From positions 13,206,001-13,270,000 of the forward strand of contig NC_081331.1 in the NCBI RefSeq assembly GCF_022539665.2: a stretch of DNA of 64,000 bases, read 5' to 3'. The translations under genes and the position numbers were made by a program. How positions within the stretch are numbered: position 1 is the stretch's first letter; every line of letters starts with the position of its first letter. Positions 2,254-64,000 of the stretch are shown here, one piece after another. The stretch comes from Daphnia carinata (Eukaryota). Under the pieces are notes generated by a model that worked only from the letters and a program-made list of their open reading frames with translations, ran no database searches and was not told the DNA's origin.

Positions 2254-4133
2254 ATGTCTCCGGTAAGAATAGTTCAAAAGTTATTTTATTTGGTGATGAT
2301 TAAGTCACGTGCGTTTAATATAACACATGCGTTTCATTACTGAATGGAAGATGCAACTAATGTACGTAGTATAAGAGTTTTTCTTCTATGGGTGCCCAAA
2401 TAACTAGCGCATCAACTACCAACCACGTTGTCGTTTATAGGAAGAAGTTAACTTTCTGATGCATCAGAAAAATCTTTTGAAACTGTACCAATGTTAAAAG
2501 ACTAATTTGATGAATGGTCTAAATTGGTTACATTAGTAAAAATTTTATTTTAAAAGAACATATTTTAAAATTCTTGTTTTGTAATAGGCAAAGAAAGCAC
2601 CAGCATCTGCTGAACCCAAGAAGGCTGCGCCCAAGGCTGCCCCAGCTGCCGCACCTGCTGCTGCTGCTGCTGCTAAGAAGCCAGCCGAGAAGGCCCCAGT
2701 GAAAGCTCCTGCTGCAGGAACTGCTAAAGCCCCTGCCCCAGCTCCAGTAACGAAGGCCTCAGCTCCAGTTGCTGCAAAGGCTGCCCCAGCTGTCGCTGCT
2801 CCTGCTAAAGGAGCCACAAAAGCAGCTCCAGCAAAGGCTTCTCCGGCACCAGCTAAGGCTGCCGCTGCCCCTACTAATAAAGCTGCTGCAACCACAGTTA
2901 AGGCTGCAACGACTGCTAAGGCTGCACCTGCGGCTACTTCTGCTGCCCCAAAGGCTGCACCAGGAAAAGCTGGAGCCAAACCAGTGGCTACCCCTGCTGC
3001 TGCGACAACCAAGAAAGGTGCTGCACCTGCTGATGCAGGCAAGAAAGAGGCTGCCGCTCCTGCTAAGAAGGGTGCTGCTGACAAAAAGGCTGCTCCAGCT
3101 GCAGCTCCTGCTGCAGCACCAGCCAAGAGAAAGGCTGATGCCCCTGCTGAAAAGAAGGCTCCTGTTGCTGAGAAGAAAGCAGCAGTTGAGAAAAAGCCTG
3201 CTGCAGTTGCTGCTCCCAAGAAGCCTGAAGCTGCAGCTAAGAAACCAGAGGCTGCTGCTAAAAAACCAGAAGCTGCTGCCAAGAAACCAACTGAGAAAAA
3301 AGCTGCCCCATTGAAGGCAGCTGTTAAGGCAAAGAAAGAGACCCCAAAGAAACTTGAGGGAGTCAAGATTAAAGGAAAGGGTTACAAGGGCAAGAAACTT
3401 AATCTTAAGTTCACCATTGACTGCACTCACCCTGTTGAAGATGGAATCATGAATGCAGCTGATTTTGTAAGTATCCTTTTTTTTTTTTTTCTACTTGGAC
3501 TTGTGTTCCAAGATACTAATGATATCCAGGTTAGGGTCATCTTCCCTAACAGGTTTGACTCATGATTCCTTAATTGGTATCAGTTAGGGTCACCTTCCCT
3601 AGAAGAGTCAGTGAAAACCAAGATCTTTGATTTTATTTCAGGAAACATACTTGAAGCAGCACATCAAACTGAACAAGAAAGTTGGCAATTTGGGAACACA
3701 CATCCAAACTGAGCTGGCAAAGAGCAAAATCATTGTTTCTTCAGATGTTCCATTCTCCAAGAGGTATTATTATTTCCTTGAAGTACATTTCTTCGTCTAT
3801 GATGACTTATCCGGAAAATTAACGAACTAGAGTCTCTGACTACTGATGTGTGGATTACTCTGAAGTTCAAAAATAATCCTGGATAGAGATAAAGTGTTCC
3901 TTGTGTTAAATTTACTTTTTGTTTTTAGGTATTTGAAGTACTTGACGAAACGTTACTTGAAGAAGAACAACCTCCGCGATTGGCTTCGAGTGGTTGCCAA
4001 TGGAAAGACTTCTTACGAGCTCAGATATTTCAACGTAAGTAGCAACAACACTATTAATGTTAGCTTTAATACTAAATACGAATTTTCTTAGATCAACAAT
4101 GAGGAAGAAGATGAAGATGATGATAAGGAATAA
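2254..4133 (+). CDS. RPL22: 60S ribosomal protein L22 (eL22) with long Ala/Lys/Pro-rich N-terminal extension, about 385 aa
   Basis: Exons 2254-2262, 2588-3466, 3642-3763, 3929-4034 and 4092-4133, all GT-AG and in frame. eL22 motifs [44 protein letters not shown] and YELRYF, plus an acidic tail. Confidence 0.97.
2290..2466 (+). ncRNA. Possible intronic box C/D snoRNA (RpL22 intron 1)
   Basis: C box GTGATGA at 2293-2299, CTGA at 2340-2343 and 2456-2459. The intron (325 nt) is long for this genome. No rRNA target recognised. Confidence 0.3.
3794..3868 (+). ncRNA. Intronic box C/D snoRNA, SNORD52/snR78-like
   Basis: C box ATGATGA 3799-3805, D' CTGA 3836-3839, C'-like TGATG 3844-3848, D CTGA 3860-3863, about 65 nt before the 3' splice site. 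The guide AACTAGAGTC before D' is complementary to the conserved LSU rRNA GACUCUAGU(U). Confidence 0.8.
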
Positions 4134-55874: not shown

Positions 55875-58800
55875 CTAGAAGAGGATATCGGTAAGGATGC
55901 GGTCGATAAAGTGGACTACTCCGTTGGTGGCACTCACGTCGCTCTCGATCACGTTCGCTTCTCCGTTGATCCTCTCCAATTTACCTGCCAAAGCGGTGCG
56001 GGACGTAAAACAAAAAAAAAATCAAAAAATCAAAACAATGTCTATGACGTGAAACGAATCGCTGGACGAACACCACAGCCAGTCAAGCAATTCATTTGCT
56101 GCGGAATGCAGTGAATAGAAACTGGAACAACTTGCGCATAATGACGCATCGAAAACAAAAATGAATATACTCTGAAGCATTCATTACTTTTTCTGTTTTG
56201 GCGCGTGAGCTCGACACGTAGACGTCCGACACCGTGCAAGGTGGACAGCCACTGGCCGGCCTCCAGACCTTCACTGTAATAAGTTCCAGGAACGATGTGG
56301 TACCATAGCAGATCTTCGTCATCACCGATGAGTAACGTGATCCGGTGATGAGGTTAAGTGAACGAAGGAAAGAAAACAAATAAACAAATACCGAAATATT
56401 AAAATAAATAAAATAATAAAACATTGAAAAACAAAAAAAAGCATAGAAAAAAATAAATAGCTTTGGAAACAGAGGGTGTCGAAACAGACCGGAAACTCCG
56501 TCAAAATGGCAGAGGTAATGGCCAACTCTTTTGGCGTGCTATATACAAACTTTACAGTGGCAAATCAAAACAGTAGGAGTTTGGGAACTTTTACTGTGAA
56601 ATGCTGTTTCGTTGTTCAGGAATAGGCGCTGCTCATCTTGGCTGATGCTCAAAAATGCCTCAGTTGTCCTGTAAATAAGACAGCCAGACAGAAAAAAAAA
56701 AAACAATAAAACAAACGGACTACGACATAAGTCACGACCGCATCGCAGACGAGTTAAGACCGCAAATCTTGCAGTTGAAAAAGGTAAAGAGAAAACAACA
56801 AAAAAAATAATAAAACGTTACGGGACGAAGACAGACAGCGGAGAATCAGACGACAAGACCCTCGTGAGTGCGGGACCCAATAGCGAAGCTTGTAAACCTA
56901 CTGGCAAAGAAATCCAAATGAGTCACAAACTTCTTTTGTTTTGCTTCAATCATCAAGCGAATTTTTGTTTGCTGACAACAAGCTGCACATTTTTCCTGAC
57001 ATCGAAATTCTCAGTATATCTGACAGACGAAAGCAATGTTCCATGCATATTTTTCAAATCAATTTGTAAGAGTAGACATTTTTGTTTTTAACTCAATGAC
57101 TATCGCGATAAACCCATCAGCAACACAAATTCTAAAAATGTCAGCTTCTAATCATTGTTTAATCGTAAAAAATATTCGAATTACGCATAACGATTAAAAG
57201 TGTATACGCACTCTGGAACCTACCGCCGTCATTGAGGATGTCTAATATGGTTTGTGAAGGAGTAGGGCTCGGCATTAGAACACGATCGACGATATGCACC
57301 AACAGTTTGCCTATACGTAGATCGTTCGTTAAGAACCGGGCACCGTTGACTGTCGTTACGGTATCCTGTTTCCAGATACAAAAAGTTATGAAATAAATTA
57401 GCACCCACATGACTGCAATGACACACTATAAAAAGAATTACATTTAATAAGCTAAATAGATTTTAAAAAAAACAAGAAATACGATGAAGGTACCGCGATC
57501 AAGTATGACAAGTCATGCTATGGTCATGACTTTTGAATGACGTTGGACTATGGAACACTGCAAATCGAAAGGAAGTGACTCATCATATACTTTGGTGGGG
57601 AAGTCTAACGTCTTTTAGCCCGCCGTTAGAACGAAGACCATGTAAAGCAGGCATAAATTGGCACGCCCGTATAATAGTTCCGTGCCACCAACATCTTACG
57701 TGTCCCATTATTCCCGGCGTATATGTGCAAAGCGTGTACGGTGGTTATCGTCGATCACATCACGGCCACGCCATTTATATAAGCTAACTTTTTTTTAAAC
57801 ACACACAAGGGCGAAACCGACCGTGACTAGGTTATCTCAACGTGAATTACTTCTTGAAAAGAAACAGTTTGGTACCGAAAAGGCGAAAGGTGAAACGATA
57901 TATCAAGACAAATTCGATCGCTTTAGTTGAATGCGAAAACGACAAAGCAAGTCAACGTGTGTTGTAAATAAGAACGGCCCTGGGCCGACACCAACACAAA
58001 GACACAAAACGTAAAAAAAGTAGGAGTTTAAACGTATAACGAAATTGAATAACATTCAATCTAATTAGCCATTTTCTGATAACTTACCCTATTCTCCGTG
58101 GCGTTGTAAATGTTGAACCTCAGTCGATGCGAGCCAGCCAATGTAACGTGAGTCGCTTCGTTTTCGAATGAAGACGAGTTAAGGTGATTAGGAATAACGT
58201 GATTCAACAATACTTCTCGTAGTGAATCTGGACGCGTGATCCATCGCCTTCGCTGGCCAGCAGAAATTTTATTAAACGCTGCATTGCTCGGTGCCATCAG
58301 AGTGTACTCTAAAATAAGAATAAAATTTGAATTCCACTAAATTGACAGTTTTCTCTTTTAAATCACACCTTTATCTTGAAAGAGGGATGCGATATCCGCT
58401 TGGTTTATCAAAGAGGATAGAACTCTGAGATTAGCAGATCGCAGATGACGAGTAAGTGAATCCTCCGTGCTGGACGCGTCCGCATTAGTTCCCAGGTTGT
58501 TGTCAGTCGTTTCGTTAACAGCGCTTTCGCCATCATCGTCATCATTTTCTTTATTAATGGAAGAAAAAACGGTAGCTAAAAAGGGAGACGGACTATTGCG
58601 CTTTCCTTGTTCGATTTCATCGGAATTATCGTCTTGCAAATTGTTGGCGTTCAGCGATAAAATGATGGAGTTTTCAGTTGATGTTAAGGTTTTAACAGGA
58701 TCGTTGGATTCGGGAATGATGATGGTTATTCCACTACTGGAGGATCGTTGCTCGGAGGATGTGACAAGATCATCTGGAATTGATGGACTTGGAAAGAATG

Positions 58801-60883
58801 AAACCGATGAGGTCAAACTATTAGGTTTCCTCCATATTCTTTCTGTTGTGGTGGAAGGCAATTCGGGGTACGGAGTCGTTGCGAAAATTAAAAAATCTGG
58901 AACGTATGATTCATAAGCGGTGCTTGTGTCTACTACGGATAGCTCGTTTACTTTTGGAGGCAAAGTTGGAATTGAATTATCCGCTTCTTTCGGGCTGCGG
59001 AAGAACTGACTGTTAAGACTCGAAAATCCGCTGTTTGGAGCTTCCTGTGCCGATAGATAAATCGGTTCTACCTGTACTTGGGTAGGATCTACATTCTTCG
59101 ATGTGGGACGATTAAGAACGATCCATGATCCCCCGCAATCGTTTTTAATCGGACGATTGTTGGCCGATTGAAAAGGTATACGAAATTCATCTGGATAGTA
59201 AGGCAAGTGGCCGATGCTAGGGAATTCAGTAACAGCCAAAACTTGACTTGATTCGGCACTGAATAACCAGCTCTTATTCTGTCTATTAAAGCCATCGAAC
59301 TGTTCACCACTTTTGTCTGGTAGAGCAATGAAATCGTGAATGACTGTCGAATGTAATGCTTGAGAGTTAGCAGGTCGAGGACTAATGTTACCCCTCTGGA
59401 ACACACTGGGCTGAGCTGGTGTTATCGATTGGAATGTGGATGGAGTAGTTAATTGATGCAGTTGTGTTGCCAGTATACCACCTTTGTTATTATCATAACT
59501 AGGTTGAATATTCAGTTGGTTTTCAATGGGATAACGCGCGCTGTTATAGTTGGGCGGAGTAGTTCCAGCTCCAACTTTGCCAGAATACGAAGAAGTCTGA
59601 TGGTGTTGTGGGGGACGTTGAGGTTTAGGTAAACCGTACGCCGTACTAGGCGCCTTGGCCGGTGGATATACACTGATAGGTTTCGGAGGTTTGATGGGTA
59701 TCGGTGCTGGATAGTATTGGCCGTTGCTGATTCCTGAAGGCCTCGGTGTTGAATGGTAATGAACTGGATATGTCCCACTTGGTTTATGATAATGACCTGG
59801 CTTAGAGTTTGAATAGTGGGTATTGTAGTAGCCCGGTTTGGGAATGAACACGAAAATTGGAGGAGGTGAACCAACTGGGCCTGACTCGTGGTAGGATCCT
59901 CCACTGGACGCTGGATAACTAGGGTATCCTGATGACGGTGGCACCGGATAGTGAGGTTGATGTAAATCGGTAGTTCCTAATGAAGGCGATGGATAACCCG
60001 AACCGGGATTGTACGATCCGCTACCACTTGGTGATACCGGATAGCCTGGATAAACACCTTGATCTAATGGTAAAGGGTACAGCGGGTTCGGTGTAATGTA
60101 CGGAGCTGGAGTTGTCGATGGAACGTAATAATCGGGTTTGTTTGTGACGTAGCTGGGATTCGGATAAGACGTGGGAATTTCGTAAATCGGTTGGCTTGGA
60201 ACATAAGGTGGCATAGGTTTTGGAGGGCGATAGCCCACGTTCGTTACGGGAATGGTTGTAACATAACTCGGCGTAATGACCGGCCCGTAAGACCCACCTA
60301 AATTGTTATTGCCCGGTGTTTGAGGGTAGCGAATGGTTGTAGCTGGTGGATATGTGATGTATATCTCTTGCTGATTATAATTAGATGCTGGATATCCAGT
60401 TGGTTTGGGTACGCCATAATTATGAGGAGGTGGAGTGGGCCGAATGGGCTGCGGCTGGTAAGGTGGTCTGGCTGCAGGATAGCCAATATGTGGTGCCTTC
60501 GGTGGCCGGTAGCCTTTGAACGGTAGGCCGTTGTTGGGTTGAGGACGATGCGCCTTTATAGGATAGAATGTTCGACGTTCAGCCTGTGATGTGCCATAAT
60601 CCGTGGACCATCGTTTCTTCAAACGATTAGGATTGAATGGATCTGATGTCAAACTATCAGTTGTGTTTGTTGGATTATGTTGGCTTGCGAATACAGGATT
60701 AGTTTGGTTAGAAGATGGGTCAGAACGGTCCACTTGAACAAGATCGGGAAGTTCGAAGGTGCCATTTGGTTTGTGAGAAAAATCACTGTTTTGCGAATCG
60801 ACAAGCGTGGCTGATGTGAAGCGAATAACGTAAACGACAAGCAAACAACTGAATAGCGACCACCTGGCGCTATGACGCCACAT
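55875..60883 (-). CDS. Secreted fasciclin (two FAS1 domains) protein with very long Pro/Tyr/Ser/Thr-rich N-terminus
   Basis: Exons 60883-58369, 58308-58088, 57365-57212, 56897-56822, 56668-56595, 56313-56188 and 55984-55875 are in frame. FAS1 motifs YTLMAPSNAAF, LLNHVIP, VHIVDRVL, SVFVPTTEAF, LLWYHIVPG and ATNGVVHFIDRIL, plus a signal peptide. Confidence 0.9.
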
Positions 60884-62594
60884 TTTGAAATCAAACGGGC
60901 TATAGGCGTTCGCCTCTGGTTTTAAAGGTTTGGCTTTTTTCGCCTAGCAGTAAACTGGAAATTGGTGTTTAAAAAAAAATACACGGTTGAAAGCATTATT
61001 ATCGACATTTCATCGTTTGACCCACATTTCAATTTCCATTGGAAAAAAAGAAGAATGCAGTTTCAAACATTATCTCGGGGCGTCAACGACGTCATTGAGG
61101 ATGTGACCTATCTGTCGCTGCGTATTGAAGAACCAGATGTGAACGAGAAAAGGAATGTTACCTGTTTTTTTGCCGGCTTTATTTGGGGCCATTTTCAGTG
61201 TGGATCCACCCTACCCGCTTTCGTTTGTTTCTTAACTTTCTGTTGCCTTCTTTTTATACTGTCACGACAATAAATGTGTTATAGACTTACGCCCTTTTCT
61301 CGGGATTTGGCAAGAAAGCGTGAATCCGCACCTCGTATTCCCCGTTTGGTGACTCCCATCCTCTCCGCCAAGTGATTAAAAATCTCTTTGCGTCACGGAA
61401 CAAACAGTGAGCCCTTACAATTTATCACTTGGAAAAGGGAGCTTTTCGGATTTTCTTAGGATTATATGACCCGTCTTTGAGATGCTACAAGTATTGTGGA
61501 CCATTACGGACGTAATGGCATGTTTAAAGATGTATGCTAAAAAATAAAGGATCTGTTTAACAAGGGACGAAATAATAAACCGAACCAGTAAAACAAGTGG
61601 GCGCATCCGTAATCAAGGATGTAGCAAAATTCAATATAAGCGTATCGCTCGCTCTCTTAAGGTATGTAGTGGGTACAAGGTTCGGTAAGTTTCATGCAAA
61701 ATGTTTCTCCTGTAAATGTTTAGCCTACTGGAAATTTAAAGAAATTTATGTTCCGTTAGCTCTTTATTTAAAGTGTCTTTCGTTCGTTGAAAATTTTAAT
61801 CCGTGAAATTTGTTGCCATGGCGATTGGCGATACCGACAGAAATTGCAAAATAGTTATACCAGTCCCCATCTAGCGACGACAGACGATAGCTCTGACATC
61901 TACTCTGTGTTATTGTTTCGAGTTTGAAATATGATTTTATGTATTTTATAACAGTTTTTTTAGGATATGCGATAACATCAAATGTGTTAAAAACTGAGGG
62001 TAAAAAAGGTCTGAAGTGTAGTATCTAGCATTTTGGATTTAAGAAAAACTATAAAGATCTTTGGACATAGCTTATGATACACTTTGAAATCATGGAGCAA
62101 ATAACTGTAAAAACATATGTGGAAAATAGTCCCACAAATAAAAATTGTTATCAAAATAAAGAACGATTTGTTAAATCAAAAACTGCAATAAAATCAAGTT
62201 ATTTATTTTTTGCACCATTTCACGTTTTATGGCAACGTCGTCGGGTTTTCCGAAAATAAAAAGTGGAAGCACTACCTTCGAGTAGACGAGTTACCCTACA
62301 TCGCTAAGCACACTGTTGGGACGTGGGAGCTTGGAAACGCGTCAGATATAGCGAAGTAGTAAAGCAAGGGGTGAATCTGTATTGTGGTTTTGTATCAAAT
62401 AACTCGGATGTAAACTGGATCACTATCGTACCAATCGTTTATATTCCTTTCGTGTTGGATGTCTTAACTTTGCCGTTAGTTTTCGCGTCTACTACTTTAA
62501 ATGGACTAAGTAATTCGAGAGGGGAATAGCATCGTGAGAGGCGTGAAGAGGATAGTTCTAAGTTCGAAAAGTGTTTTTTTTTTTAGTGATAGAA

Positions 62595-64000
62595 ATGGCG
62601 TCCTTAATTTCACAAGATATATGGAAAACGTGGGAAACACATGGCCACACTGAATTGTAAGTCAGTGCATCTTAGGTTTGATTAGGAAAAAAATGAAGCA
62701 ATCTGGAGTACATAGCTTCTTCATTGCTTGATTCATAAGAAAAACTTTGGTGTTTAGCAATTTAGAGATTTTTTAAATTGTATTTGATGAAGTGGCCCAT
62801 TAAAATACTTTTCTGATTATTTGCTCTAGTATGAAACTGCTTGCAGGCTGGATTGGTTCAGACAGTAGTAGTCTTCCTTCCATTGATAACAAAGGTTTGT
62901 CTCTAAATGATCTTGTGTTTCCTCATGTTATGTTATTATATATTTAGAGCTGTTTCGTGCCATATACGAGTTTTTTTGGCAAGCCATCAGAGGTGGAATA
63001 AAGAAGGATTTAGTTTTATCAGCCATTGGAGACATTTTGGTAAAATCCTTCAATTTTAACAATGTAATTGTATTCACAATTTAAACATTTTTAAAACAGG
63101 GTTTGCATGGTGATCTAGCATCAGTGACACTAGATGTTCTGAATGTCATTGATCATGAAACATTGGTAACTGAGAATAATGATGAAAGACAGAGATTGTG
63201 CAGCATGTTGAAGGAGCTGGAAAATTGGCTTAGTGATGCACTGATTAAAGAGCGGTTGGAAATTGATACCTTACAAGACTGCAGCTTACTAAAAACAAAA
63301 AAGATATTTTACACTCGTTTCATCAAAGTGAAGACAAAGTTATTTTACAAGCAGCAAAAGTTCAACCTTTTACGAGAAGAGAGTGAGGGTTATGCCAAGC
63401 TTATAACTGAACTCAATCAAGAAATAGATGATACAATAACTCCTCTATACATTTTACAAGTAAAAATTATGAATTTCCATTGGATAAAGAATTTTGTCTT
63501 TCAACGTGCCCTTTATTTGTAAAGGTTATACAGTCTTTAATTGGCTGCTTCAACTTAGATCCCAATCGTGTATTGGATGTTATTCTTGAATCGTTTGAAT
63601 GCCGGCCACAACTTCATAGTCGTCTTTTTGTTCCGCTAATTCGATCGTACATGTCCGATTCCCTGACTTTATGCGAAGTTTTAGGATTCAAATTTACGTC
63701 GTACGACCCGTCTTCTACGCCACGCTCTCTGTTCGTCATTACCGCGCTTTTACTGCAGCACGGTGTTATTCGCCTAGATGATATTTATCGTTGGCTTACA
63801 CCCAAAGACAGCGAAATCGAGGAATCTGCTGCCAAAGAATTAGCAGACGCTAAAGAATACGCTCGCCGAATGAACATCATCAGTGTACCGAAAGAAGATG
63901 ACAAAATTGAAGAATTAATTGAAGAAAGGGCACCGTACAACCAGAAGTTTGGATTATGCGAAGCTCTTCTTTCTATTGGAGCCTGGGAACAAGCTTCAAC
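62595..64000 (+). CDS. THOC2: THO complex subunit 2, 5' part (runs off the window)
   Basis: KERLEIDTL, FIKVKTKLFYKQQKFNLLREESEGYAKLITEL, SLIGCFNLDPNRVLDVILESFE, LCEVLGFKF and NQKFGLCEALL. Confidence 0.95.

Follow-up and report, generated by a model that had tools for sequence, protein, structure and literature searches.

The eL22 locus and its second intron

The window analysed here, a stretch of 64,000 nucleotides of Daphnia carinata DNA (contig NC_081331.1), carries the gene of the ribosomal protein eL22 (RpL22), whose features are collected in Table 1. The identity of this gene, and the location in its second intron of the hairpins described below, had both been proposed from the letters of the DNA alone (hereafter the sequence-only reading), and they are borne out by the translation, by spliced reads and by a match of Pfam PF01776 to exons 3 and 4. 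Besides, exon 3 matches Daphnia pulex EFX69928.1 with 100% identity, and the splice joints of introns 2-4 are present in the RNA of relatives. The position of intron 2 is common to all 45 orthologous introns examined, and its canonical joint 3466-3642 (GT..AG) is present in the sequencing runs X24, X21, X1, X2, and X6. With one D. pulex entry among five protein matches, and a 64-kb window holding no second copy, the gene looks like the main eL22 gene.

Some further traits of the locus deserve mention. Positions 2588-3360 encode a very long N-terminal extension of about 260 residues, rich in Ala, Lys, and Pro and devoid of any Pfam match. Arthropod eL22 extensions are said to be histone H1-like. 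Intron 3 contains a box C/D snoRNA candidate (3799-3863, + strand; ATGATGA at 3799, CTGA at 3836, 3843, and 3860), with a weak Rfam match to snR78 (25.6 bits versus a gathering score of 48). This candidate is well kept in the daphniid-like locus L016, where the remainder of intron 3 has diverged, and a contig of run X8 covering 3800-3873 carries an oligo-A tail. At 58001-64000, the window displays strong GC and AT skews, with a GC skew of 0.10-0.18.

Table 1. Features of the eL22 gene and of its intron 2 (positions in the window)
Feature	Position	Strand	Description and basis
eL22/RpL22 gene	2254-4133	+	385 aa; translation
eL22 coding exons	2254-2262, 2588-3466, 3642-3763, 3929-4034, 4092-4133	+	Translation
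Intron 2	3467-3641	+	175 nt, phase 0, after ...ADF; spanned by reads
Upstream (third) hairpin	3494-3512	+	Probability 0.85 in the window, 0.54 in L016
Putative branch-point-like TACTAAT of the alternative acceptor	3514-3520	+	A3519, 10 nt before the AG
Alternative 3' splice site CAG	3527-3529	+	63-nt intron; joint 3466-3530 in X24, X2, X6, X8; CAG kept in L016
Hairpin 1, L22-consensus type, predicted eL22 site	3530-3550	+	G-C neck, 7-nt loop ending in UU
Exon 3 extension of the alternative message	3530-3641	+	112 nt; frameshift; depth begins at 3530 and continues into exon 3
Predicted three-way junction	3555-3611	+	Stem 3555-3561/3605-3611 around hairpin 3563-3582 and hairpin 2; probability 0.88-0.90
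Premature stop TGA	3563-3565	+	After 11 codons of extension; next exon junction 198 nt downstream
Hairpin 2, L22-consensus type, predicted eL22 site	3584-3602	+	Previously delimited as 3585-3601, plus one pair
Canonical (productive) 3' splice site CAG	3639-3641	+	Sequence; spliced reads

Two hairpins of the L22-binding type in intron 2

The consensus for L22 binding, which the accessible portions of PMC4838235 and bioRxiv 2023.12.29.573614 credit to Dobbelstein and Shenk (1995), consists of a G-C neck and a loop of 5-9 nt ending in U. Hairpins 1 and 2 both conform to it, as do all 30 distinct loops of the wider family presented below. The sequence-only reading had described two near-identical stem-loops with G-C necks and 7-nt loops ending in U, and all seven stretches that it named were found where it had placed them. 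In fold computations, the mean pair probability is 0.89 for hairpin 1 and 0.88 for hairpin 2, the latter again having a G-C neck and a 7-nt loop ending in U, with its 3' end 39 nt upstream of the canonical acceptor. A covariance model scores hairpin 1, whose own sequence was included in building it, at 38.2 bits and hairpin 2 at 22.3 bits (E 0.0009); over the whole window, these two are the only hits below E 2.

The hairpins are beyond chance. When the intron was shuffled 20,000 times with its dinucleotides preserved, two or more Watson-Crick stems (5 bp or longer) combining a G-C neck with a U at the 3' end of a 7-nt loop arose in 2 of the shuffled sequences, and in 64 of them when loops of 5-9 nt were allowed; a 17-mer repeat with at most one mismatch was obtained in none of 300 shuffles. 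Generic L22-type hairpins are not rare, 27 of them lying on the + strand of the window; the core YAGGG-N6-9-CCCTR occurs twice in the 64 kb, as hairpins 1 and 2.

The fold of 3480-3625 has a z-score of -1.90 on the + strand and of -0.91 on the - strand. The third hairpin, formerly placed at 3495-3511, does form; in the best fold, it has a 4-nt loop closed by a C-G pair, which is not an L22-type loop, and a fold resembling it occupies the same place in L016. The longer-range complements pointed out at the same time are present too, and sequence and fold agree that they cannot nest together: the pairings TGACTC/GAGTCA (3556-3561/3605-3610) and GATACTAAT/ATTGGTATC (3512-3520/3573-3581) are mutually exclusive. 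The first one is favoured (probability 0.90) and identical in L016, whose centroid fold repeats the layout of the three-way junction. The second one comes at an ensemble-energy cost of 5.0 kcal/mol and has a weak counterpart in L016 (-4.2 versus -10.1 kcal/mol). A two-fold switch operating through 3512-3520/3573-3581, as the sequence-only reading implied, was therefore rejected on account of this cost and of its not being kept in L016, two species being compared; the 3512-3520 stretch holds the TACTAAT listed in Table 1. Finally, of the changes displayed by relatives within the extension (3562, 3583, 3590, and 3593), none affects a paired position and two lie in the hairpin 2 loop; on their own, these four changes are weak evidence for structure.

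An upstream acceptor and a message with an early stop

What the sequence-only reading had missed is the output of the switch, namely an acceptor at 3529|3530 whose use leads to a premature stop. The first base after this acceptor is the first base of hairpin 1. The joint 3466-3530 was detected in four of the six RNA runs (X24, X2, X6, and X8, from four studies), a proportion biased toward positives given that X2, X6, and X8 had been picked for their higher word share, and it was not seen in X21, which has one canonical read, or in the contigs of X1. One read of X24 supports it, versus six for the canonical joint; the contigs bearing it have depths of 100 in X2, 29.4 in X6, and 595 in X8, which are not a measure of isoform ratio. 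The RNA bearing this joint belongs to organism B, a close relative of the window's strain, most reads being 90-99% alike; X1 belongs to organism A, and the genomic run X15 stands outside the RNA count. The upstream acceptor of intron 2 is thus used in a close relative, in which the resulting frameshift yields the early stop at 3563, and the predicted truncated product has 307 residues, from 296 codons before the intron and 11 after it. Such use of a poison acceptor in an invertebrate is new here; our literature search, whose coverage excludes most subscription papers, returned no report of the element in invertebrates. The TACTAAT is identical in L016 and stands there at the same distance from the acceptor. 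In a separate observation, contig 21 of X8 (3535-3671) starts at 3535, just behind the TAG inside hairpin 1, with a depth of 758 versus 595 for the 3530 joint, which hints at a second acceptor; no matching joint is listed.

These reads bear on two other ways of understanding the stretch. The first one, that eL22 would bind the hairpins but mainly block splicing, the upstream acceptor being a side product, is modelled on yeast RPL22B, described as acting by splicing inhibition in the accessible portions of PMC4838235 and PMC13630204, and would suit the corals, in which the single intact hairpin lies 22-23 nt from the canonical AG. Intron retention was however not seen in X24, X2, X6, and X8, because the depth is 0 over 3488-3529 in these four runs, with 3530-3641 covered; in addition, the CAG and the TACTAAT are kept in L016 despite an exon 3 that is only 81% identical to that of the window. 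We consider this version very unlikely.

The second one sees intron 2 as the source of a processed small RNA, an H/ACA snoRNA or similar, an outcome that the sequence-only reading had itself envisaged. Two H/ACA snoRNAs are indeed hosted by the introns of Drosophila rpL22, according to the available part of the literature, and the neighbouring intron 3 of the Daphnia gene has its own C/D candidate. Against this stand the RNA itself, which is linked to exon 2 by a splice joint and runs without a break into exon 3, as an exon extension does, the size of the hairpins (17-21 nt, with no pocket), and the ACA following hairpin 1, which is not kept in L016. Moreover, intron 2 matches nothing in Rfam up to E 10, and eight orthologous loci have no hit that reaches the gathering score. 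A snoRNA is thereby largely refuted, its chance being close to nil.

Conservation of the hairpins across animals

Orthologous introns were sought in metagenome contigs with a pattern made of the end of the eL22 exon followed by GT, which is blind to the hairpins. Among the 72 loci found, 45 have a delimited intron. The 27 others are left out of the count that follows; L030, L040, and L062 look like chance matches and most of the rest end early, although L037 and L072 nonetheless show the hairpin. The core YAGGG-N6-9-CCCTR is present in 40 of the 45 complete introns, in one to three copies and always within the last 130 nt, these introns ranging from 140 to 2,785 nt. Altogether, the target sequence of 5,907 bases, to which the window contributes, contained 74 copies, and 324,494 control bases taken from these loci contained none.

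There is redundancy among the 40 carriers, which represent 11 lineages. These are a daphniid-like locus (L016, with an exon 3 81% identical to the window's), stony corals (95-97% to Stylophora), another anthozoan-like locus (L024), a tunicate (94% to Clavelina), bryozoan-like loci (L006, L011, and L060, whose best named match is Flustra at 81, 71, and 66%), a locus grouping with Phoronis (L054), vertebrate RPL22L1-type loci (L026, L033, and L067, with two hairpin copies each), and four further animal lineages (the L001-group, L007, L043, and L053), which are unplaced in a tree of 68 columns with few deep forks resolved. The three vertebrate loci are labelled RPL22L1 because they form a 99/97 clade separate from fish RPL22 and because their peptides match published RPL22L1 primers. 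Both the window and these loci have a phase-0 intron after a VEDG...F motif, Daphnia intron 2 being orthologous to RPL22L1 intron 2.

In an alignment of 15 hairpins, the five inner pairs are invariant and, because they never vary, are uninformative on compensation. The four outer pairs are paired in 91.7% of cases with 17 double changes, and all four change on both sides, in rows that were picked for having the motif and some of which are related; shuffles average 67.4% paired and 4.8 double changes, not one of 500 does as well as the real alignment, and the slid controls are 15-53% paired. This pattern indicates that the structure is kept by compensatory change in the outer stems. As for the loops, all 30 distinct ones end in U, 27 of them in UU, and 24 have 7 nt. 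The hairpins first noticed in Daphnia are thus conserved, with covariation, in 11 animal lineages.

In corals and the tunicate (L002, L014, L013, and L024; last 80 nt of the intron), one intact hairpin is accompanied by an apparent decayed second copy, which suggests a turnover of copies within the array. In 8 of the 11 lineages, the last hairpin has CCCT-R-A in its 3' arm, and 26-50 nt separate the final A from the canonical AG. A branch point would lie at such a distance; the placement does not fit in Daphnia, the tunicate, and RPL22L1. On the opposite arm, taking the TAG as an acceptor would lead to a stop four codons later in 38 of 41 carriers, because of the symmetry of the stem and the 7-nt loop. 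That this TAG serves as an acceptor is a hypothesis: the Daphnia site is a different one, and a frameshift is what has been described for the human form.

The extension in orthologs measures 41-121 nt and occurs in all three frames. This free variation argues against a function for the alternative message as a coding one, i.e., for a basic protein of 307 residues, rich in Ala, Lys, and Pro and without most of the ribosomal domain, that would have a role of its own. Such a protein would agree with the 296 codons that precede the intron and the 11 that follow up to the stop, with the alternative form being readily visible in several runs, and with a truncated Drosophila rpL22-like form reported on polysomes in the portion of the literature at hand. 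Yet the element is also kept where the preceding exon has a short open stretch, as in corals and RPL22L1, and the Daphnia stop is situated 198 nt before a junction, so that a coding role seems most improbable.

Five of the 45 introns (L020, L025, L041, L003, and L046) are devoid of the core. L020, 91% identical to stickleback, and L025 are both fish RPL22 loci, from which an apparent loss of the element from vertebrate RPL22 emerges, one of these two loci being doubtful. Indeed, L025:2710-3002 (- strand) is fish RPL22-like and has introns, but its motif is altered to DHAH and its reading frame is interrupted close to the exon 3 end; it is possibly a pseudogene or an assembly error. L041 is divergent. 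The 58-nt intron of L003 (1391-1448, - strand) contains a G-C-neck hairpin with a 7-nt loop ending in UU, the stem of which includes the canonical AG; this hairpin, noticed after the fact, is possibly a diverged, retention-type version of the element. Likewise noticed after the fact, a GGG...CCCT remnant in the L046 intron may be a diverged copy.

A model of eL22 self-limitation

We propose, with a probability of about 0.8, that eL22 regulates itself by unproductive splicing, spare eL22 binding the hairpins, splicing being directed to the upstream site, and the message being destroyed. More precisely, eL22 produced in excess of its uptake into new 60S subunits would bind the hairpins on its own pre-mRNA, splicing would move from 3641 to 3529, and the stop-bearing message would be handed to nonsense-mediated decay. 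As to how the acceptor is chosen, our guess is that the hairpin-2 domain, whose 3' end lies 30 nt upstream of the canonical AG, would, once bound, hinder assembly at the branch point and pyrimidine tract of the canonical site; splicing would then be left with the upstream site and its consensus branch point. That eL22 binds the hairpins, and that more free eL22 means more upstream splicing, is inferred from the human homologue; decay of the Daphnia alternative message is expected from general rules and from zebrafish, for which a strong rise of the rpl22l1 NMD transcript in upf1 mutants is described in the accessible part of the literature.

The feedback switch suggested by the sequence-only reading, with free eL22 acting on its own pre-mRNA, gains support from the conservation with covariation and from the non-snoRNA nature of the stretch, the binding of eL22 being predicted by analogy. 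This feedback switch is likely an old one, since corals, sea squirts, and vertebrate RPL22L1 carry the same hairpins in the corresponding place.

Another protein could nevertheless read the hairpins, for instance an SR protein or a ZMAT3-like one, or the hairpins could set a fixed ratio between the acceptors, eL22 being without control in Daphnia. The five inner pairs are fixed in sequence beyond what the loose L22 consensus needs, SRSF4 affects the human RPL22L1 variant (bioRxiv 2024.08.15.608201; PMC12035866, accessible portions), and PMC12035866, in its available part, finds no RPL22 CLIP peak on RPL22L1. This alternative remains unlikely in view of the motif being found only in eL22 introns, with none in the control bases and no further copy in the window, and of the fit of all 30 loops to the L22 consensus. 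Besides, the L22 level drives the human event, as RPL22 expression raises the use of the RPL22L1 alternative acceptor (PMC12035866), depletion of L22 lowers the non-coding form of RPL22L1 and depletion of S13 raises it, and ZMAT3 has no effect according to a section heading (bioRxiv 2023.12.29.573614, accessible portions).

Origin and significance of the element

Taken together, these data may delineate an RNA family absent from Rfam and older than the split between corals and bilaterians, i.e., a hairpin array by which eL22 would limit itself, kept in RPL22L1 and lost from vertebrate RPL22 after duplication, self-regulation thereby turning into one-way repression of a paralogue. Its 17-nt unit may carry an acceptor AG in the 5' arm, an in-frame stop in the 3' arm and, in the last copy, a branch-point-like CTRA. 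We lean only slightly toward this scenario. New here, from sequence comparison, are the covariation, the spread from corals to vertebrates, and the apparent loss from vertebrate RPL22.

The question of origin has been raised before: in their accessible portions, PMC4838235 asks whether L22 control is conserved or convergent, and PMC4937301 proposes that cross-regulation arose by duplication of a self-regulating gene. The element offers a direct test of where this control comes from, as it is present in eL22 from corals to Daphnia and in RPL22L1 and missing from two fish RPL22 loci. Furthermore, the natural alignment turns the eL22 site from a loose three-base rule into a searchable model and points to positions for mutation. 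The mechanism being already known in humans, the surprise resides in the age of the element and in its home in the eL22 gene itself. The human case has a medical side, the loss of RPL22 in microsatellite-unstable cancers switching on RPL22L1 and MDM4 through splicing, and RPL22L1 becoming a synthetic-lethal dependency after that loss (bioRxiv 2024.08.15.608201; PMC12035866; bioRxiv 2023.12.29.573614, in the portions available). Further background on L22 is found in reviews (PMC8047918, PMC8623629) and papers (PMC3750023, PMC3074143).

Comparison with known L22 and ribosomal protein systems

The closest relative of the Daphnia element is the switch described in human cells in 2023-2024, to which it is homologous. 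In the accessible portion of bioRxiv 2024.08.15.608201, the use of an alternative acceptor in human RPL22L1 intron 2 leads to an early stop, two stem-loops overlap this acceptor, and RPL22 CLIP signal is enriched there; juxtaposed L22 consensus sites in RPL22L1 are noted in the available part of bioRxiv 2023.12.29.573614. The portions available of these two papers and of PMC12035866 include no mutational evidence that the human splice choice depends on the hairpins. Two overlapping primers published in bioRxiv 2024.08.15.608201 give, for the human intron, the 17-mer TAGGG-TTCTCTT-CCCTA in sense, an orientation that rests on the primer labelled forward, intron 2, as one of the two reads antisense although it is listed in the forward position. 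By eye, this 17-mer is identical to hairpin 1 at 15 of 17 positions; a primer with the same letters stands under another gene's name in the accessible part of PMC9334049.

The two systems thus share the intron position, two juxtaposed L22-consensus hairpins of near-identical sequence close to the canonical acceptor, and an upstream acceptor, at hairpin 1 in Daphnia, that leads to an early stop. They differ in that the Daphnia element resides in the eL22 gene itself rather than in a repressed paralogue, which means self-regulation if the gene is single-copy, and in that the Daphnia acceptor CAG immediately precedes hairpin 1, the human acceptor being overlapped by its stem-loops. In addition, the Daphnia extension has 112 nt, with hairpin 2 set in a predicted three-way junction, and the Daphnia case is known here from sequence and from splice joints in relatives.

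Compared with the L22 consensus and with the zebrafish Rpl22l1 exon-2 hairpin (PMC3750023, as far as accessible), the intronic family is far more constrained, with a YAGGG/CCCTR stem and a loop mostly of 7 nt ending in UU, and it would act on splicing rather than on mRNA stability. The yeast RPL22B/RPL22A system (PMC4838235; PMC13630204, accessible portions) resembles it in that L22 lowers the output of the L22 family through an intronic structure, with decay of the products. However, the yeast RPL22B element is unlike the consensus, the sequence of its apical loop is irrelevant, and it blocks splicing via alternative long stems (PMC4838235); there is no sign of homology, and a two-fold switch is unsupported in Daphnia.

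Among surveys of unproductive splicing of ribosomal protein genes, the accessible part of PMC4937301 does not name rpl-22 among four newly found C. elegans genes, the four earlier ones not being all named there, and that of PMC2689934 does not name RpL22 among five Drosophila targets. The former describes a parallel outside the L22 family, the L10ARE of rpl-1/RPL10A, which is also a deeply conserved intronic element located between two splice sites and involved in autoregulation by unproductive splicing. Whereas the L10ARE switches 5' splice sites through a 39-nt stretch that binds uL1, the eL22 element is associated with 3' splice sites and consists of one to three short hairpins.
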